Part shown: one piece after another, positions 38,820 to 48,097 of the stretch | Layout: each line of letters starts with the position of its first letter | How positions within the stretch are numbered: the first letter of the stretch is position 1 | From: Candidatus Multivorans sp. | Lineage (GTDB): Bacteria; Acidobacteriota; Thermoanaerobaculia; Multivoradales; Multivoraceae | Direction of reading: 5' to 3' | Length of the DNA stretch: 64,000 nucleotides | NCBI GenBank assembly: GCA_965247095.1 | Contig: OZ251997.1 | Coordinates: 3,424,001 to 3,488,000, forward strand | The notes under the pieces: model-generated | Database searches by the model: none | What the model saw: only the letters and a program-made list of their open reading frames with translations | What the model was told of the DNA's origin: nothing | Position numbers and translations under genes: made by a program

Positions 38820-39638
38820 GTGACCAAGGGCCGGCCTCCCGGACTACCTGACTTCCGCAAGCCGCCGCTTGTGGAGGTCGCGCTATCGGTACAGTTCGAA
38901 CCACTGCCCGGACTGACAACGGCTCACGTCGGGCTCCTGTGGCAGAGCAACTACCGGCACCAACTGCCTCTCATCGAAGAACATCCCCCGCTCGAGCCGG
39001 CCACAGAGGATTTCGGCCCGCCTGGTCCCCAGGGAGTCACGATCGCCTTCGGCAACAAACCGCCTGCACCGCGTGTGTGGTTTCTGAACGAGGAGAAGAC
39101 AGAGCTTCTCCAGATTCAGCCTGACCGATTCGCCCACAACTGGCGCAAGACGGGCGAACAGGACCGCTATCCGCGGTACGAGACGATCCGGGACCAGTTC
39201 AGGGATGAAGTCCGTGCGTTTGCCGGGTTCCTCAACGAGGAACGCCTGGACGGCCTATCGATCAACCAGTGTGAGGTCACCTATGTGAACCACGTCGATC
39301 TGGACGAGCCGGAGTTCAGTCGCTTGGAGAAGCTGGTCGCGAACTGGCAGCCGCTTCGCGAGTCCGCCTTCCTGCCCGTTCCCGAGGACCTGTCGTTGAG
39401 CTGGCGATTCCGAATGCCGAATGAGGCCGGCCGCTTACACGTCTTCGTCCAGCCCGCTTGGGATTCGAGCGGAAAACGCCTCTGGGCGTTCCGGCTCATG
39501 GCGCGAGGTCGTCCGGCCGGGGAAGGATTGGAAGGCGCCTTTGGGTTCCTGGATTTGGGCCGAGAGTGGGTCGTCCGCGGATTCGCGGATCTGACGACTG
39601 GCTTGATGCATCGTTTATGGGAGAGAACAGATGTTTGA
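38820..39638 (+). CDS. TIGR04255-family protein
   Basis: LPDFRKPPLVEVALSVQFEPL, PRVWFLNE..TELLQIQPDRFAHNWRK, YPRYETI, CEVTYVNH, final helix F..LTT...H.LW. Confidence 0.75.
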   Translation: MTKGRPPGLPDFRKPPLVEVALSVQFEPLPGLTTAHVGLLWQSNYRHQLPLIEEHPPLEPATEDFGPPGPQGVTIAFGNKPPAPRVWFLNEEKTELLQIQPDRFAHNWRKTGEQDRYPRYETIRDQFRDEVRAFAGFLNEERLDGLSINQCEVTYVNHVDLDEPEFSRLEKLVANWQPLRESAFLPVPEDLSLSWRFRMPNEAGRLHVFVQPAWDSSGKRLWAFRLMARGRPAGEGLEGAFGFLDLGREWVVRGFADLTTGLMHRLWERTDV

Positions 39639-40167
39639 CACAGCCCAATCGGGCCACATGGTTCTTTCTGAACCCCTCGGCTCGCCGGACGAGCACACGA
39701 CATCGTCGAGCGCGTCCAGCCAGCTTGCGAGCGGTCCTGCTCCGCCCGGGGTGCAGTTCCGGGTTGTTAGTGGACCGTATCGCGTCTTGATCGACGCGCC
39801 TCGACTCCCGTCGAAGTCGGTACTGGAGGCGATCCGTCGGGCAGCCGAGCTACTGCAACTCCCTCGGGGCTGGAACTCATACGATGCCGCGCCAGTCTCT
39901 CAGGAGTCCCTTAGAGAGGCACTCACGTTCCTCCTCGAGGCCGCAACAACCATCCCGAACTTGGCGTCACCCGCCGTCGTGCCGACGGCTCCGGGGGGAA
40001 TCCAGCTCGAATGGCACCAAGGCGGAGTGGACATCGAAGTCGAGTTCAACCCCGACGACCCACCGTCTTGGTATGCCGAAGATGTGGCAAGCGGCGAGAC
40101 AGCAGAAGAGGTCCTTGCCCCGAACGACGCCACCCTTCGCGTGTGGTTGGCTCGGGCTTCAGACTGA
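39631..40167 (+). CDS. Hypothetical protein (middle gene of the TIGR04255 module)
   Basis: Low-complexity N-terminus, then LLQLPRGWNSYDAAPVS...PAVVPTAPGGIQLEWHQGGVDIEVEF. 8-bp overlap with the upstream gene. Confidence 0.7.
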   Translation: MFDTAQSGHMVLSEPLGSPDEHTTSSSASSQLASGPAPPGVQFRVVSGPYRVLIDAPRLPSKSVLEAIRRAAELLQLPRGWNSYDAAPVSQESLREALTFLLEAATTIPNLASPAVVPTAPGGIQLEWHQGGVDIEVEFNPDDPPSWYAEDVASGETAEEVLAPNDATLRVWLARASD

Positions 40168-40171
40168 CTTC

Positions 40172-40585
40172 GTGACATCGCCCGAAGAGTGCCGGGCGCG
40201 GTTCCCCGACGATCCAGAGATCGAAGACCATGTGGGCCTGCTGCGGCGGATTCCACGAAGGCACTTCGTGCCCGACAAGAACGGCGGAGGTCGTCGGCTT
40301 TCTTCCGCAGCCTTCTACGACGACCGCGGCGGGGATCCCATGTCTGTCTATCGCACGGACGTCATCGCGTCGGAAGGCGACCGCCCGGACCGGGTGATGG
40401 CCGGGCATACGGGTTTCGGTCTGGTGTCGATCACTGCCGAGAGGTGCCGCCAGAAACAGCAGACAGTTCATGCCGATCCGCTTCCTGACGAGACTGCCCA
40501 CGCCTTGGTCTGCGGCCCGAAGACGAGGAGCCGCCGGAGGTGTTTTGCGAAGCACTCGCAATGGGTCATCGTCCCTCCGGCTTAG
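40172..40585 (+). CDS. Small hypothetical protein, possible ADP-ribosyltransferase/RES-like fold toxin
   Basis: GTG start 4 bp after the previous stop. Motifs LLRRI, RLSSAAF, MSVY, DPLPDETAHALVCG. Confidence 0.55.
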   Translation: MTSPEECRARFPDDPEIEDHVGLLRRIPRRHFVPDKNGGGRRLSSAAFYDDRGGDPMSVYRTDVIASEGDRPDRVMAGHTGFGLVSITAERCRQKQQTVHADPLPDETAHALVCGPKTRSRRRCFAKHSQWVIVPPA

Positions 40586-40606
40586 CAAGGACCGAGTTTC
40601 TCTGGG

Positions 40607-40634
40607 AAGTGTCCACGAAACCGGGGCAAGCTCA
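40607..40634 (-). mobile_element. Orphan IS3-family terminal inverted repeat
   Basis: AAGTGTCCACGAAACCGGGGCAAGCTCA is 27/28 identical to the IS3 end at 3880-3907. No transposase adjacent. Confidence 0.85.
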
Positions 40635-40657
40635 CCCCGGCGCGTTTCCGGAAGCGG

Positions 40658-43600
40658 CTACTTCGGGCGGAAGCGAGTAGCGACATACGTTTCGGCGTCC
40701 CTTTCGCCAAGCCGCACCGTGCCCGGCCCGCTCCGAACGTAGAAATCGCCGTCAGGCCGCTTCTCCAGCACCTTCCACCGCAAGTACACCGGCTCGGGAC
40801 TTCGCTGGCAACTCACGAGACAGACCGTCTTTCCCTCCACGATCTGCGTCTCAGGATCGATGCACGTGCCGGCCCGATCGCCCAAACCGTTGCGTACAAC
40901 CTGCGCCAAGTGCCGCATGAACTTGTCGTCGCTCTCCAGGCGGTCGTGGTCGATGCCGAGCACGTTGCGGTCGTCGTCGACGCCGATGAGGAGGTCCCCG
41001 CCATCGGTGTTGAGGAAGGCGGCGATGGTCTTGAGGGCCGCGTGGGTCACGTGCCGGTCGTCCTTGCGGCCCTCCTTCAGGTTCCAGCGCAGGCTCGACT
41101 TGAACTCGAGCGTCTTCGATTCCTGGAGCTTGAGCAGTTCTTCGGCTCGGCGGTGTCGCTTGATGTAGTCCTCGAACAGGTAGTCCTTGAGGGTCCGGCC
41201 GAAGTCGGGATCGTCGGTGATGCGCTTGTAGAAGTCGAAGTTGGTCTCGACGATTTCCTGGATCTTGTCCTCGACCTTGGGATCGAAGGTGAGCCGCACG
41301 TTCTCGCGGGTGTTCACCCTGGCACTCGCGGTGAGGCCGGCGTCGTGGTCGAGGGCGGATCGGATCTGTTCGAGGGTGACGCGGTGCTCGTCGGTGAGGT
41401 TCAGACCGAAGCGCTCGTTCAGGCCCTCGATGATCCGGGACAGGGCTTCCAACTCCTCGCCGCCGGCGCCGCCTGCAGGCTTGCTCCCGGCGGGCTCGAG
41501 CGGCCGGACTTGCCGTTCGAGCGCAATCCGGCCGCGGCTTGTCGGCTGGATGCGGAAGGACTCCATGTCGATGTTCTGCTGCACCTCGAGGGGCAGGGCC
41601 TCTCGGCCGACGGATAGCAGGCGGCGGAGGTGTCTGGCGAACTGGTAGAGCTTCTCGAGATCGGTATCGGCAAAGGTCAGAACCTGGGAGAGGAAGGCGT
41701 AGAGGCGGGTGTAGTCGGTGAGTTGGCCGAGAAAGTCCTGCGCTTCTTCGTCGACCAGCTCGGCGAAGCGCTGGCGGGCGGGTTCGAGGGCGGCGTAGAT
41801 TCGGTCCTGGGTGGCCTCGGGACCGAAGTACGCCCGCGCGAACGTCTCGATGTCGGCGGTCGCGAACACGCCGAAGTCGACCAGCCGTCCCTGGACTTCG
41901 TACAGCAGGTTGGGGTCGGTCTCTTCGGAGAGGAGGGTGGTCTCGTAGTACGGCTCGAAGGCCTTCTGGATCTCGTCCGGCTCGTTGGCGAAGTCGAGGA
42001 CCATCGTGCCGCCCTTGGCGGGGTGGGTGCGGTTCAGGCGAGACAGCGTCTGGACCGCGTTCACGCCGCCGAGTTTCTTGTCCACGTACATCGTGTGGAG
42101 CAACGGCTGGTCGAAGCCGGTCTGGAACTTGTTGGCGACGATCAGGAAGCGGTACTCGGGCTTGTCGAACGCGGCGGCCGTCTGCCGCTCGCCGATCACC
42201 CGATCCTGCCCGGCCGAGTTCATGCCGGACTCCGTGTAGGACTGGCCGCCGTCCTTGACCGTTCCGGAGAAGGCGACGAGCGCCTTCCAGGGGTGGCCCT
42301 TCTCCTCCACGTAGCGATCCAGGGCGAGCCTGGTGCGCACCGCGTGCAGGCGGGAGCGGGTGACGATCATTGCCTTGGCGCGGCCGCCGATCTCAGGCGC
42401 GACCAACTCGGCGAAGTGCTCCACGCAGATGGCGATCTTCTCTCGGATGGCATGCGAGTGGAGCTCGACGAAGGACTTGAGGAGATGCTCCGCCTTCCGT
42501 TTGTCGTAGCGCGGGTCGCCCTCGATCTTCTTCTTCAGGCGCCAGTACGCCTTGTAGGTCGTGTAACTGCCGAGCACGTCGAGAATGAACCCCTCCTCGA
42601 TCGCCTGGCGCATGCTGTAGAGGTGGAAGGGCTTGAACCTGCCGTCCGGCTGCTTCTCGCCGAAGAGCTCGAGGGTCTTGGGCTTCGGCGTGGCCGTGAA
42701 AGCGAACGTCGAAAGGTTCGGCAGTGGCCCGCGGAGGCGGATCTCCTCGTGGACGCGGTCTTCGAGCTCCTCCTCGGGAGTCAATGCGCCCGCCTCTGCC
42801 TGCTCGGCCTCCTCCAGGCTCTGCGCGTCGAGGACGGCCTTGAGGCTCTTGGTGCTCTCACCGGACTGCGAGGAGTGCGCTTCGTCCGCGATCACCGCGA
42901 AGCGCTTGCCGGGGAGCTGGCCGATCTCATCGGCGATGACCGGGAACTTCTGCAACGTGGTGACGATGATCGTCCGGCCGGCTTCCAGGGCCTCGCGGAG
43001 TTGGCGCGAGGTGTGGTCGATGTTTTCGACCACGCCGAGGGTCTGCTCGAACTGCCGGACGGTCTGCTGGAGCTGGCGGTCGAGCAGTCGACGGTCGGTC
43101 ACCACGACCACCGAATCGAAGACGCGCCGGTCGTCGAGGTCATGCAGCACCGAGAGCTGGTGGGCGAGCCAGGCGATCGTGTAGCTCTTGCCGCTGCCGG
43201 CCGAATGCTGGATCAGGTAACGCTCGCCCGGGCCGTGGTTGCGCGCGTGGCTGACGAGCCGGCGCACACAGTCGAGCTGCTGGTAGCGCGGGAAGATGAG
43301 GAAACGCTTGCCAGTCCTGCGCCCGCGATCATCTTCCTCCGTGACCTCCTGGATGAACTGGCGAAGGAGGTCGAGGATGCTGTCGCGGGCCCAGATCCGC
43401 TCCCACAGGTAGTCGGTGGGGTAGCCCTGGCGGGTGAGCGGGACGGCCGGGTTTCCCGCGCCGCCGTAGCGGCCCTGGTTGAAGGGCAGAAACCGGGTCT
43501 TGGGCCCCGCGAGGTGCGTGGTCACGAACACCTGTTCCGGGTCCACGGCGAAGTGGGCAAGGCAGCGTCCGTAGCCGAACAGCGGTTCCCGCGGATCCCG

Positions 43601-44194
43601 ATCGTTCTTGTACTGCCGGATGGCGTCGTCGACGGTCTGTCCAGTGAGTGGGTTCTTGAGTTCGGCCGTGAAGATGGGAATGCCGTTCAGGAAAAGCCCC
43701 AGGTCGACGCTCTCCTCGTTCTTCTCGCTGAAGTGGAGCTGGCGTACGACGGCGAAGAGGTTGGCGGCGTGCAGGCGCTGGAGTTCCTCGTTGAGGCCGC
43801 TTGCCGGTTGGAAGTACGCGAGCCGGAACTTGCAGCCCGAGTCTCTGACGCCGTTCCGCAGCACGTCGAGGGCGCCGCGGCGGGCGATCTCGCGTGACAG
43901 GCGGCCCAGGAAGCGCGGCTTCAGGTCGGCGCCGTAGTGCTGCTTGAGCTTCGTCCACTCCTTTGGCTGGGTGGCCAGGAGGAAGTCGAGGACATCGGGC
44001 GGGACCAGGCAGAGGGCGCGGTCGTAGTCCTTGGGCCGGCGCTTGTGGAAGCCGCCGGGCAGCGGGTCGTGGCCGTATGACGCGGCGGACTCGCGCAGTT
44101 CGGTGACGTCGTCCGGGTGGGCGTCGGGGCCGTGCTGGAGGAGGGCGCGCTCGATGGCCTGCTCGAAGCCGCGTTCTGAGATCTCGGGAGTCAT
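40658..44194 (-). CDS. hsdR: Type I restriction enzyme R subunit with C-terminal AlbA_2/Schlafen-like domain
   Basis: Nuclease motif VDLGLFLNGIPIFTAELKN, Walker A HSAGSGKS, DEAH, FTATP, FQTGFDQP, QTLSRLNR. Tail ESKTLEFKSSLRWN...KTIAAFLNTDGGDLLIGVDD. Confidence 0.93.
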   Translation of the reverse strand: MTPEISERGFEQAIERALLQHGPDAHPDDVTELRESAASYGHDPLPGGFHKRRPKDYDRALCLVPPDVLDFLLATQPKEWTKLKQHYGADLKPRFLGRLSREIARRGALDVLRNGVRDSGCKFRLAYFQPASGLNEELQRLHAANLFAVVRQLHFSEKNEESVDLGLFLNGIPIFTAELKNPLTGQTVDDAIRQYKNDRDPREPLFGYGRCLAHFAVDPEQVFVTTHLAGPKTRFLPFNQGRYGGAGNPAVPLTRQGYPTDYLWERIWARDSILDLLRQFIQEVTEEDDRGRRTGKRFLIFPRYQQLDCVRRLVSHARNHGPGERYLIQHSAGSGKSYTIAWLAHQLSVLHDLDDRRVFDSVVVVTDRRLLDRQLQQTVRQFEQTLGVVENIDHTSRQLREALEAGRTIIVTTLQKFPVIADEIGQLPGKRFAVIADEAHSSQSGESTKSLKAVLDAQSLEEAEQAEAGALTPEEELEDRVHEEIRLRGPLPNLSTFAFTATPKPKTLELFGEKQPDGRFKPFHLYSMRQAIEEGFILDVLGSYTTYKAYWRLKKKIEGDPRYDKRKAEHLLKSFVELHSHAIREKIAICVEHFAELVAPEIGGRAKAMIVTRSRLHAVRTRLALDRYVEEKGHPWKALVAFSGTVKDGGQSYTESGMNSAGQDRVIGERQTAAAFDKPEYRFLIVANKFQTGFDQPLLHTMYVDKKLGGVNAVQTLSRLNRTHPAKGGTMVLDFANEPDEIQKAFEPYYETTLLSEETDPNLLYEVQGRLVDFGVFATADIETFARAYFGPEATQDRIYAALEPARQRFAELVDEEAQDFLGQLTDYTRLYAFLSQVLTFADTDLEKLYQFARHLRRLLSVGREALPLEVQQNIDMESFRIQPTSRGRIALERQVRPLEPAGSKPAGGAGGEELEALSRIIEGLNERFGLNLTDEHRVTLEQIRSALDHDAGLTASARVNTRENVRLTFDPKVEDKIQEIVETNFDFYKRITDDPDFGRTLKDYLFEDYIKRHRRAEELLKLQESKTLEFKSSLRWNLKEGRKDDRHVTHAALKTIAAFLNTDGGDLLIGVDDDRNVLGIDHDRLESDDKFMRHLAQVVRNGLGDRAGTCIDPETQIVEGKTVCLVSCQRSPEPVYLRWKVLEKRPDGDFYVRSGPGTVRLGERDAETYVATRFRPK

Positions 44195-44257
44195 GGGACG
44201 TTCAGAGCGCAGCCGGACACGGCGCCGGTTGGGTTGTGCGATACTATGAGTGGTACT

Positions 44258-44512
44258 ATGCGTGGGAAGCACCGGCGAACCCTGGAGAGAATGCGCACGC
44301 GGCCAACGCCGGCGGACATCCGCTGGACGGACCTCGTAGCCATGCTCCAGGCCGCTGGTGTCCAGGTCTCGGAGCGCTCCGGGTCGAGAGTGCTCCTGAA
44401 GCAGGACGCGGAGCGGATGATTGTGCATCGGCCGCATCCAACACGGGTACTGGGCCGCGGGGCGGTGCGCGCCATCGTCGCCTTTCTCGATGCTGGAGGA
44501 GTGGAACCATGA
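44258..44512 (+). CDS. hicA: HicA-family toxin
   Basis: KHRRTLERM...DIRWTDLVAML...ERSGSRV...VHRPHP. ATGA overlap with hicB. Confidence 0.85.
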   Translation: MRGKHRRTLERMRTRPTPADIRWTDLVAMLQAAGVQVSERSGSRVLLKQDAERMIVHRPHPTRVLGRGAVRAIVAFLDAGGVEP

Positions 44513-44841
44513 TGAAGTACAAGGACTACGTTGCTGCCGTCGAATTCGACGATTCGGTGGGCCGTCTGCACGGCTGGGTCGTCAACAGCGGCCCCTATCC
44601 CATCGCGACGTTCGAAGCGATCGATGTTGACGGGCTTCGACGGGAGTTCGAGCGCTCCGTCGACGAGTACTTGGCGTCGTGCGCGGAGGATGGCGTCGAG
44701 CCGCGAAAGCCGTTCTCCGGCGTCCTCAACCTGCGGCTTGGACCCGACCTGCATCAACGAGCCGCCCTTTCCGCCGGCGCTCTCGGTGTGAGCCTGAACA
44801 GTTGGATCAAGCAGGCCGTCGAGGAGAAGGCTCTTCACTGA
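44509..44841 (+). CDS. hicB: HicB-family antitoxin
   Basis: MKYKDYVAAVEFDD...SVDEYLASC...EPRKPFSGVLNLRLGPDLH...SLNSWI. Confidence 0.9.
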   Translation: MMKYKDYVAAVEFDDSVGRLHGWVVNSGPYPIATFEAIDVDGLRREFERSVDEYLASCAEDGVEPRKPFSGVLNLRLGPDLHQRAALSAGALGVSLNSWIKQAVEEKALH

Positions 44842-45111: not shown

Positions 45112-46488
45112 TCATCGAGGTGCTGCCTCACGCACGTCGATCTTGCCGGTGACCGCGGCGGAGATGAGAGCGGTGCGGAGTTCCTTGAAGTGGCGGATTG
45201 CTTCCTCAACCTTGGCAACTAGGAGATGGACGCGGAGACACTCCTTCTGGATGTGAGCGACGATGTTGCCTTGCTCATCAACTCGTGGCACAGGCGTCGT
45301 GAGTGTCTTCACTTCGGGCATCCCGATCGTACGCAGTGTGGCGCCCATCGTTAGTCGCTCAAGCTCGCTCCGCATGGCGTCGAAGACGCGCAGCAGGTAC
45401 TCGGGACTCACGGCCTCGCTGCAAAGCCAAGCTATGAAGTGCTGCGACACGGCCGTCGAGCGCTCGGTTATCGCACAGAGGCCAATCGTTGCGTCGCGCG
45501 AGAAGACGACCGACCGTGGCGGAAGCAGGCGGGCCGACGAGTTGGCTAGCCCGAGTTCGTTCGTGTAGTACGCCGTGTCGCCGATGTAATCGTGATTCTT
45601 GAGGTAGCCAGTATCGTTCAGCGAAACCCAGGGAATGTCCCCGTCGTTCCAGTAGGCGTCGACTTTCTTGTCTGGAGTATGGCCGCTCTCCATTCGAGCG
45701 ACCCATTTCACACGCTTCACATCCCAGTGCATCGGGATCTCGCCCAGCCACTCGACGCCGGAGTCCTTCATGGGGACTTTGGGGTCGAGGCCCCGGGTGA
45801 CGACGCGGGTGATGAGGGCGGTCCGTTTCTCCTTAAGCAGCTCGATCAGCCGCTCCTTCTTCGCCACTAGCGCATCGATCTTCGCTGTCTCGCGGTCGAG
45901 GAAATCAGCGATTGCTTGTTGCTCGGAGAAGGAGGGTAGAGGATGGCGGAAGTTGCGAACAAAGTTACCGGAGATTCGCTTCTGGCCGCCCGCGCCATAC
46001 ATGGAGGCTTCTCCGATGAGGCGGAAGTGGTTGCCGAAAGTCAGGTAGAGAAGGAAACGAGCTTCCACCTCGGAAGACGGACGTAGCACGTGGAGCTCGG
46101 TCGTTCCGAAGCCGACGCTACTGGAGAGGCCTTTGGCTAGAGCGCCCTTACCGTTCTCGAAGCACGGCGTGATCTTGGCAACGATGACGTCTCCGTCGCG
46201 GAAGTACGTGTAGCCGTCGAGGACCTCTGAGAGCGGTTTGGTCGAATCGAGGCTCAGGCCGCCGTACTCGCGGATCGCTTCCATCGGAACAAAAGAAACC
46301 TCGGTCTCGGGATTGAAGGTGCTTACCTCTTTCTTGCTGAGTCTCGTTTCAACGACGAACCGGAGCCGCGTAGAGTCCCAGTGCGCCGGAATCTCCGGCA
46401 GCCACTCGATGTCGGGGTCCCTGTATTCTGGGTACCGCTGAAAGCGTCGCCGGGCCTCCTCCTCGGTCCAGTGGGTAATCTCGGTCAT
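45112..46488 (-). CDS. hsdS: Type I R-M specificity subunit
   Basis: Two TRDs with conserved spacers EQQAIADFLDRETAKIDALV...MKDSGVEWLGEIP and ELRTALISAAVTGKIDVR. Confidence 0.93.
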   Translation of the reverse strand: MTEITHWTEEEARRRFQRYPEYRDPDIEWLPEIPAHWDSTRLRFVVETRLSKKEVSTFNPETEVSFVPMEAIREYGGLSLDSTKPLSEVLDGYTYFRDGDVIVAKITPCFENGKGALAKGLSSSVGFGTTELHVLRPSSEVEARFLLYLTFGNHFRLIGEASMYGAGGQKRISGNFVRNFRHPLPSFSEQQAIADFLDRETAKIDALVAKKERLIELLKEKRTALITRVVTRGLDPKVPMKDSGVEWLGEIPMHWDVKRVKWVARMESGHTPDKKVDAYWNDGDIPWVSLNDTGYLKNHDYIGDTAYYTNELGLANSSARLLPPRSVVFSRDATIGLCAITERSTAVSQHFIAWLCSEAVSPEYLLRVFDAMRSELERLTMGATLRTIGMPEVKTLTTPVPRVDEQGNIVAHIQKECLRVHLLVAKVEEAIRHFKELRTALISAAVTGKIDVREAAPR

Positions 46489-47444
46489 GGCTCTTCGCCT
46501 CCGGTCAGAGCCTGAAGTCCCGCTCGCCATGGCCCGCGGGGGGGCCAGACCTGCGTGAACGGCCTCCCCCCAATGAGGCTGTCGCAGACCGGACCCAGAA
46601 AGGTCCGCAACTCCTCGCCAGCGTCAACGAGGTGAGCCGGCCCATCGGCCTTTGGCCCTATCCGCCTCCGCAGCACCTGCCACCTCTGGTCTCGCTCGGT
46701 GTCCTCGTAGTACTCAGGCAGCAGAGCCACCGGCCTCTCACTGGCGAACGATGTTCGCCGGCGCCGGAAGGTCTCCTCAACCGCGGTTCGCACCGTCTCG
46801 CCGTCGAACGCGAAGAGGCGAGCGAGACAGGCGATGTCCCAGAGATCCTTCACGCGGGTGTTCGTCGTACCGAGGCGCACCATCGCGTCGAGCTTCTCGG
46901 CCAGAAGAGTCTCCCGCGGGTAGGTCCAGAGGCGCGGGGCGGGCAGGTCGAGAAGGGTGGGATAGTCCCGCTCCTGACGCTCGGGCGTGATGACGTCACC
47001 AAAGCCGATGTCCGCCTGGAGGTGGAGTCGCGCCTGGCCGAGCCCGCCCTCCATCCGCACGCGCACACCGCCGTGGGGCTGGTCGTCACGGATGTCGTGC
47101 ATACGGATCGTCGCCGGGTCGAAGACGACGCCGTCCTGGGGGCATGGCGCTGCGCAGATCGCTTCAAAGGAGGTCCGCAAGGCCGCATGGTCTTCGGGCC
47201 CGGACGAGAGAAAGTCGATGTCCCGGGTGGGTCGCAGTTCCTGTCCGGTCCATACCCGGAAGAGAGCCGCCCCCTTCAGGGTGAATCGATCCACCTCATG
47301 GGAGGTGGCGAGGCGGTACAGGAAGCGCTCCATCGCGTAGCGCTGGAGCAGGAGATTGAAGCGAGTCCCCTGGCGGTGGGCAAGGTTCAGCAGGCGCTGG
47401 TGAATGGATGCGGGAACGTTGCGGATCTCCCTCTTGCGGGTCAT
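46485..47444 (-). CDS. abiEii: AbiEii/AbiGii nucleotidyltransferase toxin
   Basis: ASIHQRLLNLA...YAMERFLYRL...FTLKGAALF...RPTRDIDF...AEKLDAM...NTRVKDLWD. Confidence 0.9.
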   Translation of the reverse strand: MTRKREIRNVPASIHQRLLNLAHRQGTRFNLLLQRYAMERFLYRLATSHEVDRFTLKGAALFRVWTGQELRPTRDIDFLSSGPEDHAALRTSFEAICAAPCPQDGVVFDPATIRMHDIRDDQPHGGVRVRMEGGLGQARLHLQADIGFGDVITPERQERDYPTLLDLPAPRLWTYPRETLLAEKLDAMVRLGTTNTRVKDLWDIACLARLFAFDGETVRTAVEETFRRRRTSFASERPVALLPEYYEDTERDQRWQVLRRRIGPKADGPAHLVDAGEELRTFLGPVCDSLIGGRPFTQVWPPRGPWRAGLQALTGGEEP

Positions 47445-48097
47445 GCCGACAGAGCCTCCAGCACCGGACCGACCAGCGACTTGGCGCGGCAGACCTCCGC
47501 AGCCCGCCAGATCTCGTCGGCGGTTGCCTTGCGGTCGCCCAGGGCGTCGCGAAGTGCCTCCAGCGCCACGTCTTTCCCGACTAGCCTGCGGAAGCGAAAG
47601 CAGTCCACGACCGTTCGGGCCGGGCTCGTGATGCGCGTCGGAACCCCCTCGAAGGTTGCCCTCACGACCCCGTAGTGGAGCGAAGCGCCGGAGAAGCGAA
47701 CGATCTTGACCGGTAGCTCGCCAAGTTGAGGGGCTCTGGCCTTGTGCGGAATGGCGATCCACTCCTGCCACGGGAGCTGGGTCCCAAGGCCGTGGACGCT
47801 GAGCGCGGACAGCAGGCAGACAATGGCGCCCGGGACCCGCGCGCAAACTGCGGCCAGGGTGTAGTGCTCGGTGGGTTCCATGTCGGCGAGCCGGTAGAGA
47901 CCACGGGCAACTCTCTCGACCGAACCGGCATCCACGAGTTGCCGCAGTTGGCGGGAGTGGACGCCCAGTTGGGCTGCATCGCGCTGGCGGAAGAAGCCCC
48001 TGGCGCCGAGGCTCTGCCGGGCGGTGCCGCTCAGCCGGGTACGCCGGTCGGAAGTGTCGGCAACTGTGGATAGTTGCCTGCTGTTCTCAACGGCCAT
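47441..48097 (-). CDS. abiEi: AbiEi type IV antitoxin / transcriptional regulator
   Basis: VERVARGLYRL, VCLLSALSVHGL, ITSPARTVVDCFRFR...ALEALR. Confidence 0.9.
   Translation of the reverse strand: MAVENSRQLSTVADTSDRRTRLSGTARQSLGARGFFRQRDAAQLGVHSRQLRQLVDAGSVERVARGLYRLADMEPTEHYTLAAVCARVPGAIVCLLSALSVHGLGTQLPWQEWIAIPHKARAPQLGELPVKIVRFSGASLHYGVVRATFEGVPTRITSPARTVVDCFRFRRLVGKDVALEALRDALGDRKATADEIWRAAEVCRAKSLVGPVLEALSA

Follow-up and report, generated by a model that had tools for sequence, protein, structure and literature searches.

Why would the restriction subunit of a type I restriction-modification (R-M) enzyme carry a second nuclease domain, one of the Schlafen family, at its C terminus? The question is raised by an hsdR gene on the minus strand of a 64,000-nucleotide stretch of DNA from Candidatus Multivorans sp. 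(assembly GCA_965247095.1, contig OZ251997.1, positions 3,424,001 to 3,488,000; hereafter the window, with positions counted from its first letter). An earlier note made from the letters alone had proposed that the HsdR frame runs on past its usual end into a Schlafen/AlbA_2 domain, which might serve as a backup RNase guarding the restriction complex. The comparisons described below identify the extension as a Schlafen domain with an apparently intact active site, place it in a recurrent gene fusion (hsdR::slfn), and allow its possible functions to be weighed against each other.

RESULTS

The HsdR reading frame continues into a Schlafen domain

The gene lies in a minus-strand open reading frame (ORF) of 1259 amino acids, stop to stop (40658..44437), which contains all of the strings that had been quoted from it, namely ...FYKRITDDPDFGRTLKDYLFEDY, then ESKTLEFKSS, IAAFLNTDGGDLLIGVDD, and FYVRSG. 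Relatives were collected from species-representative genomes, where 276 of 356 pattern-matched stretches passed tblastn and the best 80 of the 276 were examined. The probable start of hsdR is M82 of the ORF (window 44194), because relatives align from there (at 65 of the 80 loci, the match begins at residue 1 to 6 of the resulting product) and the family consensus begins at the same Met. The gene thus occupies positions 40658-44194, and its product, P0005, is 1178 amino acids long; residues below are numbered along P0005 unless stated otherwise. The frame stays open for another 81 codons on the 5′ side (44195-44437, minus strand), where it overlaps hicA on the opposite strand. Since relatives lack this stretch, it is probably not translated.

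The end of the HsdR portion can be read from relatives that have no Schlafen domain (Slfn-less). A tblastn search of 72,556 plasmids with P0005 matched 1351 records, every one at less than 60% identity, and the best 40 alignments terminate at query residues 951-1039, 12 of them at residue 1013. One such relative, from plasmid pYP1 of Ketogulonicigenium vulgare, is annotated as a type I restriction endonuclease of 1012 amino acids without the extension; its stop codon follows aligned position 1006 by 18 codons. As Slfn-less relatives end near residue 1013, the extension comprises residues 1011-1178, i.e., 168 amino acids (window 40661-41164), in agreement within 4 bases with the continuation first proposed (40658-41160). 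A split or internally initiated Schlafen product was considered and rejected: the linker codons contain no in-frame ATG or GTG, and no stop codon interrupts the junction at any of the 80 loci. A scan of positions 40300-40800 for terminators and promoters found none.

The presence of a Schlafen/AlbA_2 domain on HsdR was confirmed by a Pfam search. PF04326 (SLFN_AlbA_2) matched residues 1106-1242 of the 1259-amino acid ORF (window 40712-41122) with an E value of 5.1e-19 and 69.4 bits, compared to a cutoff of 25.3, and the match spans positions 1-116 of the 118 in the profile. The isolated domain also matched, at the level of sequence, the C-lobes of pig SLFN11 (7fex, E 1.3e-4) and rat SLFN13 (5yd0, E 3.2e-4). 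The matched region takes in the active-site motif, which reads ESKTLEFK here and ESQSIEFK in SLFN11 (7fex).

An AlphaFold2 model of the domain, built on an alignment of 68 diverse Schlafen homologues, had a predicted local distance difference test score (pLDDT) of 95.5 and a predicted template modeling score (pTM) of 0.90. When this model was compared to the PDB with Foldseek, 31 matches were obtained at E ≤ 1e-3; among the matches listed at that E value, all were Schlafen/AlbA_2 structures, including DIP2311, the SAMD9 tRNase/DNA-binding domain, a RecG-related N-domain, SLFN13, SLFN11, SLFN14, SLFN5, and SLFN12. The probability was 1.00 for 3lmm, 9o0d (SAMD9 tRNase), 2kyy, 5yd0 (SLFN13), and 7zel (SLFN11), with query-normalized TM-scores of 0.45-0.63. 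A viral fold library returned a giant-virus “Divergent AAA domain” protein and poxvirus Schlafen-like proteins.

The predicted Schlafen active site is conserved

The defining motif of prokaryotic Schlafens is E-x4-(E/D)-x-K (PMC13056530; PMC13462974), and a SAFAN box with a Gly-hydrophobic core and a third acidic residue are further features of the family (preprint 10.64898/2026.05.29.728809). Conservation was assessed in an alignment of 67 sequences, i.e., the window and 66 loci with an ORF of at least 1150 amino acids, the 14 shorter loci being omitted. Residues E1030, K1032, and D1074, the AAFLN segment, and the GG pair are each present in all 67 sequences, and E1025 in 66. The acidic residues of the ExxxxEFK motif, E1025 and E1030, are retained in the window as had been claimed, together with K1032. 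The Schlafen box reads AAFLN-T[D/E]-GG-DLLIGV, a variant of SAFAN in which A replaces S and L replaces A.

Across the 68 diverse Schlafen domains used for modeling, the catalytic positions are either invariant or at least 90% conserved. Position 66 of the domain, which corresponds to D1074, is an invariant Asp in that alignment, and D1074 is also found in 43 of 43 sequences of the HsdR alignment. It lies within an IGVDD stretch that aligns with the IGVDD of SLFN11, and we take it to be the equivalent of D252 of the human protein. The triad E1025/E1030/K1032 corresponds to E17/D22/K24 of the CRISPR-associated bacterial Schlafen CbCash, where these residues hold Mg2+ and the scissile phosphate (PMC13462974). 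Both tRNA cleavage and defense are abolished by the substitutions E15A/D20A in RorSlfn5 and E17Q, D22N, and K24A in CbCash (PMC13056530; PMC13462974). By alignment, all of the published sequence features of a Schlafen nuclease (triad, Schlafen box, and third Asp) are present in P0005.

The HsdR core retains its motifs

Besides the Schlafen domain, P0005 matched the Pfam families HSDR_N (PF04313, 57.6 bits compared to a cutoff of 25.1), SWI2_SNF2/ResIII, and T1R_D3-like. The PD-(D/E)xK residues D164/E178/K180 (43655-43705), the Walker A motif GSGK at residues 333-336 (43187-43198), and the DEAH box at residues 437-440 (42875-42886) are invariant in the 43 aligned sequences. The closest solved chain is EcoR124I HsdR (2w00, E 1.1e-11). 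With 214.2 bits, the protein missed the cutoff of the NCBIfam family TIGR00348 “hsdR” (284.55 bits), and by this measure it belongs to a divergent HsdR lineage outside TIGR00348. With nuclease and motor motifs intact and hsdM and hsdS adjoining, it is predicted to be a working type I R subunit. Since the HsdR catalytic residues and the Schlafen residues are equally invariant, both predicted nucleases, the DNA-type one and the Schlafen one, appear to be maintained by selection.

The fusion is old, widespread, and conserved

A protein database was searched with residues 1005-1178 by a word-indexed method (E ≤ 1e-3), which returned 2168 candidates of 647-2062 amino acids and 1429 matched clusters at 90% identity. 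PF04326 and the type I domain PF22679 occur together in all of the 120 clusters listed out of the 1429, most of them 1175-1193 amino acids long. At all 80 genomic loci, the Schlafen domain shares one stop-to-stop frame with HsdR and ends 0-36 residues before the stop codon. The match is single and unbroken, from residue 1 to 6 to at least residue 1175, at 65 loci; the remaining 15 comprise eight that are truncated where a contig ends, six in which the frame changes within the core of HsdR, and one from which the first 413 residues are missing. The junction is broken in none of these 15. The Schlafen end is intact at all seven loci with a damaged core (L010, L026, L027, L032, L045, L073, and L044), which may be pseudogenes or assembly errors.

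In a FastTree phylogeny of the window and the 65 complete loci (the 15 incomplete ones being omitted), the window falls inside a well-supported clade labeled Candidatus Multivorans (Acidobacteriota). The tree carries 13 phylum labels, and one clade of 19 rows mixes a dozen phyla on short branches, which suggests a horizontal spread of hsdR::slfn, with the caveat that most of the records are metagenome bins. A more distant relative, P0170 (Acanthopleuribacter pedis by NCBI name), is 46% identical and collinear with P0005 from the HsdR N terminus through the Schlafen domain. Since a relative this divergent has the same fusion, the fusion is old. Judged from these comparisons, it is also widespread and conserved.

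The Schlafen domain is about as well conserved as the motor. Mean identity to the window in the 67-sequence alignment is 0.82 in the Schlafen domain, 0.85 in the motor, 0.78 in the N-terminal nuclease region, and 0.76 in the helical region. The ratio of nonsynonymous to synonymous substitution rates (dN/dS; Nei-Gojobori, 20 loci chosen to span 70-94% identity) is 0.05-0.21 in the Schlafen domain compared to 0.12-0.24 in the core; the domain has the lower value in 19 of the 20 pairs, all but that with L052.

These data bear on whether the fusion is accidental or decaying, the loss of a stop codon having run HsdR into a neighboring Schlafen gene, or is an assembly artifact. No positive evidence for this reading was found. 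A one-off loss of a stop codon had been named in advance as the case that would undo the proposal. The identical in-frame junction at 80 of 80 loci in many phyla, the co-occurrence of both domain sets in every listed cluster, the full-length collinearity with a 46% identical relative, and the purifying selection on the domain together refute it, and we regard an accidental origin as vanishingly improbable.

In a tblastn search of 50,697 phage records, the Schlafen domain found no match at an E value of 1e-3; among plasmids, seven records matched at 30-37% identity, none of them within an HsdR. No instance of the fusion was therefore found among these catalogued phages and plasmids.

DISCUSSION

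A possible second effector on the restriction subunit

On balance, we lean toward the view that the Schlafen domain is a regulated, RNA-directed second effector on HsdR. By homology, it would be a metal-dependent endonuclease that cuts tRNA loops and thereby stops the translation of both host and phage. The statement that Schlafen domains are tRNA-cleaving nucleases (tRNases), on which the earlier note drew, now holds for bacterial members too (PMC13056530; PMC13462974), and “built-in backup RNase” would be a fair name for the likely effector. Judging from three characterized bacterial Schlafens, a lone domain would be inactive, and activity would need several domains assembled. RorSlfn5 purifies as a hexamer (PMC13056530). 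CbCash, a T-loop tRNase that cyclic tetra-adenylate (cA4) turns on, passes from an inactive dodecamer to an active filament (PMC13462974), and in RzAgo single bacterial Schlafen domains dimerize to reconstitute the two-lobed form of the mammalian enzyme (preprint 10.64898/2026.05.29.728809).

As to what would set the effector off, DNA engagement or damage is a candidate, although this specific assignment is more likely wrong than right. The methyltransferase core of the idle R2M2S1 complex has one HsdR subunit on either side, as seen in the EcoR124I structures. With one Schlafen copy per HsdR, the domains would be kept apart and silent; we infer this silence because one bacterial domain amounts to a single lobe that is active only on assembly. 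The domains would be switched on when the HsdR C termini are brought together or released. Candidate events are an encounter with unmodified DNA, through the dimerization or collision of translocating complexes, or a DNA-damage signal; dimerization or collision of translocating type I enzymes is the moment at which they cleave DNA. A possible scheme, to which we are not strongly attached, is a tRNase under the control of DNA engagement: once unmodified DNA has been recognized and translocating complexes dimerize or collide, two HsdR-borne Schlafen domains would pair and start tRNA cleavage. The gene cassette as a whole would be a single transferable unit that combines DNA restriction, an abortive or arrest layer based on a tRNase, and, in most cases, an embedded AbiE module.

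Several points weigh against an RNA-directed effector that is gated in this way. Only two of seven bacterial Schlafen systems tested defend E. coli (PMC13056530), and the activity of a Schlafen domain therefore cannot be assumed. A biochemical or genetic test of any HsdR-Schlafen protein was not found in the literature. In one of the 67 aligned relatives, Lys replaces E1025; at six of 80 loci (L010, L026, L027, L032, L045, and L073), there is a frame change in the HsdR core, and L044 is the locus without the first 413 residues. The full-length AlphaFold2 model of the 1178-amino acid protein (43-row alignment, relatives 49-94% identical) had a mean pLDDT of 53.1 and a pTM of 0.32, too poor to reveal how the Schlafen domain packs on HsdR, and both the trigger and the oligomerization step are ones that we infer. 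Last, a SAMD9 domain solved with DNA (7ksp) is among the fold matches, AlbA_2 domains also bind DNA, and relatives of P0005 are labeled by NCBI as “putative DNA binding domain-containing protein.”

The last of these points also speak for a domain that does not act on RNA at all and is either a DNA-binding or DNA-cutting accessory of restriction or a module by which HsdR regulates itself, e.g., by holding DNA ends or loops, making a second strand cut, or assisting methyltransferase assembly. Besides 7ksp and the NCBI label, SLFN5 entries described as “DNA binding” are among the fold matches, and the extension is located where the C-terminal regions of HsdR lie. In EcoR124I, the C-terminal region of HsdR contacts the methyltransferase. 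However, Slfn-less relatives are annotated as complete genes, and the Schlafen domain is therefore an addition rather than a needed part of HsdR. The strictest conservation, moreover, falls on the published catalytic triad and the metal-binding Asp, which have served tRNA cleavage in every bacterial case tested so far. We therefore consider a role without RNA quite improbable.

A tRNase on HsdR could instead be a cis-acting guard, as the earlier note had it. A functional complex would hold the Schlafen domain off, and the domain would cut tRNA once phage anti-restriction proteins (DNA mimics such as Ocr or ArdA, or peptides resembling Stp) block the complex or deform it, much as PrrC on EcoprrI but in covalent form. 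The precedent named in the note holds. PrrC, a tRNase that guards a type IC system, has a gene of its own inside that system's locus, and the T4 Stp peptide together with dTTP activates it when Stp inhibits EcoPrrI; PARIS likewise senses the inhibition of restriction, and RloC is activated by DNA breaks (review PMC12707154). A guard would also suit an effector that sits physically on the complex targeted by anti-restriction proteins, has a conserved active site, and belongs to a layered cassette with AbiE embedded at 41 of 62 loci (see below). Against this, PrrC homology was not found, whole-protein Pfam and PADLOC scans returning only HsdR-type and Schlafen families, and no feature of the sequence indicates inhibitor sensing. 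Rare relatives with a Peptidase_S24 tail (see below) point to a DNA-damage type of signal, and the authors of PMC13462974 offer the speculation that Schlafens linked to R-M systems detect structures that DNA cleavage produces. The guard trigger is neither supported nor contradicted by these comparisons and no better supported than one based on DNA engagement or damage; taken by itself, we hold it to be unlikely.

Relation to known Schlafen and restriction systems

Bacterial Schlafens have been found fused to many presumed sensors (PMC13056530). One of them, RorSlfn5, is triggered by a T5 tail-assembly chaperone and cuts tRNA anticodon arms, and its motif mutants lose defense (PMC13056530). It shares with the protein described here PF04326, the E-x4-(E/D)-x-K motif, and a single Schlafen domain fused to another module in a defense context, and a phage-triggered cleavage of tRNA is the activity that would be expected of hsdR::slfn. 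However, the partner of RorSlfn5 is an Ig-like sensor that binds this chaperone, while here it is a complete restriction motor-nuclease with the Schlafen domain at its C terminus. CbCash, whose triad corresponds to the one here, differs in that cyclic tetra-adenylate turns it on by way of a Csx15 sensor.

The Schlafen-R-M link itself has been noticed before. R-M systems or other nucleases are neighbors of more than half of the defense-linked Schlafens, and fusions to methyltransferases also occur (PMC13462974). A Schlafen-GHKL module has been found fused to a type I S subunit (preprint 10.64898/2026.05.29.728809). In these fusions (the former in Cluster 3 of PMC13462974), as in ours, a Schlafen domain is welded to an R-M subunit; the partner there, though, is M or S and not R, and the fusions often include a GHKL ATPase, which P0005 lacks.

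Supplementary Data 3 of PMC13462974 contains Schlafen domains of proteins of 1140-1192 amino acids whose closest defense system is type I R-M, and the domain of one of them, GIW53030.1 (1192 amino acids), is nearly identical by eye to that of P0005. In the text of this paper, “HsdR” occurs zero times, and the fusion is neither named nor analyzed there. Among the supplementary tables of PMC13056530 (16 of the 17 files), we found no architecture with ResIII, SWI2_SNF2, or HSDR_N, the only related form being one of ~516 amino acids with “T1R_D3-like + SLFN_AlbA_2” in the 17-member class pSlfn15. A literature search, which covered neither subscription-only papers nor the PDF supplements of the two Schlafen papers, found no paper treating an HsdR-Schlafen fusion; the sole paper containing both Schlafen and HsdR was a general nuclease review. 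Members of the family are thus already present in a published table, but this search found no description of the HsdR-Schlafen architecture itself.

Two further systems combine similar parts. PrrC/EcoprrI resembles the fusion in that a tRNase is tied physically and genetically to a type I restriction enzyme, coupling restriction to translational shutoff. PrrC, however, has an unrelated fold and an NTPase domain and is a protein in its own right, whereas here the effector is a Schlafen domain and is covalently fused. Mammalian group III Schlafens such as SLFN11 likewise contain a Schlafen tRNase and a nucleic acid motor ATPase in one polypeptide. Here, in contrast, the domains come in the opposite order, the motor is an unrelated superfamily 2 (SF2) type I restriction translocase as opposed to the superfamily 1 (SF1) helicase of SLFN11, and the bacterial domain equals only the C-lobe of the mammalian enzyme. 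The nuclease of SLFN11-type proteins is regulated by dimerization and by single-stranded DNA (ssDNA) when the helicase binds it (PMC13462974; PMC13056530). The resemblance to SLFN11 is a convergence in architecture.

Prokaryotic Schlafen tRNases were shown to be phage-defense effectors only in 2025-2026, with activation signals known for just two sensors, the Ig-like domain and Csx15, and the Discussion of PMC13462974 states as an open question how R-M-linked Schlafens are switched on. HsdR::Slfn is the simplest case of this link, because sensor and effector form one chain on a well-understood machine, and the 1429 clusters offer many orthologues for expression. Knowing its trigger would decide whether Schlafens linked to R-M systems act as guards against anti-restriction or as reporters of DNA engagement or damage, and would show whether restriction and an abortive or arrest response can be coupled in one enzyme. 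If gating by DNA engagement is true, one polypeptide would turn the detection of non-self DNA directly into translational arrest. It would then be a bacterial counterpart, by convergence, of the ssDNA-activated SLFN11, and the HsdR-Schlafen-S24 forms would be a RecA-type, damage-gated version.

The R-M operon and its neighborhood

The features of the operon are collected in Table 1. The likely start of abiEii is the ATG at 47444-47446, which overlaps the end of abiEi; the stop-to-stop ORF extends to 47846. The hicA/hicB pair begins ~40 bases from the hsdR start codon.

Table 1. Coordinates of the R-M operon, its embedded genes, and the parts of hsdR within the window.
Feature	Position	Strand	Support
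hsdM, type I methyltransferase subunit, 704 amino acids	48174..50288	-	PF02384 N6_Mtase 1.5e-55; PF12161 HsdM_N 1.9e-24; PADLOC MTase_I 9.4e-268
abiEi, antitoxin-like, embedded in the R-M operon	47441..48097	-	PADLOC AbiEi 5.3e-70; PF13338 AbiEi_4 5.3e-11
abiEii, nucleotidyltransferase toxin-like	46485..47446	-	PF08843 AbiEii 3.3e-42; PADLOC AbiEii 2.3e-94 from ORF residue 138
hsdS, specificity subunit, 472-amino acid ORF, alternative start 46488	45112..46530	-	PF01420 Methylase_S, two stretches, 4.7e-22; PADLOC Specificity_I 1.9e-114
hicA (44234-44512) and hicB (44512-44841), toxin-antitoxin pair between hsdS and hsdR	44234..44841	+	PF07927 HicA_toxin 6.5e-9; PF05534 HicB 6.6e-19
HsdR core, residues 1-1010: PD-(D/E)xK nuclease, SF2 motor, helical C-terminal region	41165..44194	-	PF04313, PF18766, PF04851, PF22679 above cutoffs; PADLOC REase_I 2.2e-35
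C-terminal extension of HsdR: short conserved linker and Schlafen/AlbA_2 nuclease domain	40661..41164	-	PF04326; AlphaFold2; Foldseek
Predicted active-site motif E1025-x4-E1030-x-K1032 (ESKTLEFK)	41099..41122	-	conservation; SLFN11 alignment
Schlafen-box-like AAFLN, then GG and hydrophobic core, ending at D1074 (AAFLNTDGGDLLIGVDD)	40973..41020	-	conservation
hsdR stop codon	40658-40660	-	

Upstream genes were counted wherever 6.5 kb or more of sequence was available upstream of hsdR, as was so for 62 of the 80 loci (tblastn, E ≤ 1e-5, with half of the query or more covered). HsdS was found upstream of hsdR::slfn at 55 of these loci, AbiEi at 49, HsdM at 47, and AbiEii at 41; both AbiE genes were present at 41, and a HicB-like ORF was found at eight. 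By these counts, the recurrent cassette is hsdM-abiEi-abiEii-hsdS-hsdR::slfn, and hicA/hicB is an accessory and not a constant part of it. The Slfn-less locus on pYP1 (L081, 1840-10021) has an AAA ATPase gene and a gene annotated as “retron system putative HNH endonuclease” between hsdS and hsdR; the divergent HsdR lineage thus seems to host varied accessory defense genes inside the operon.

The island is flanked by metabolic genes, with no tRNA gene or integrase seen at its flanks. Downstream of hsdR and convergent with it are genes for a TIGR04255-family protein (38820-39638, plus strand) and a 233-amino acid ORF that has no family (39884-40585, plus strand). Only fragments of these neighbors (38820-40585) adjoin hsdR, at a few related loci.

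Sister forms and other partners of the Schlafen subfamily

In P0170 and in the fragments P0141 and P0176, each of which runs from the HsdR end onward, the Schlafen domain is followed by a Peptidase_S24 domain with, by eye, a LexA-like Ala-Gly site and a GRSMEP serine motif. A search with this tail returned 16 proteins among 2136 candidates; 12 of these are HsdR-type, only one of them with a Schlafen domain, and three are helicases of ~2000 amino acids. The S24 tail is also found at the end of HsdRs with DUF3387 but no Schlafen domain, which suggests that it may be a self-cleaving switch on restriction subunits. The HsdR-Schlafen-S24 side branch appears to be rare, and it gives a weak hint of a DNA-damage or DNA-engagement signal.

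The nearest non-HsdR relatives of this Schlafen subfamily, at 40-51% identity, form the C terminus of many proteins of ~400-440 amino acids (e.g., P0165, P0169, P0172, P0173, and P0182), whose N-terminal ~270 amino acids have neither a Pfam family nor any resemblance to HsdR. An ESM Atlas search with the N-terminal 275 residues of one of these proteins (~435 amino acids) returned unnamed clusters only, with a best score of 0.83. Further partners seen with the subfamily were RNase HII, S1 domains, TPR, and PLD-like domains.

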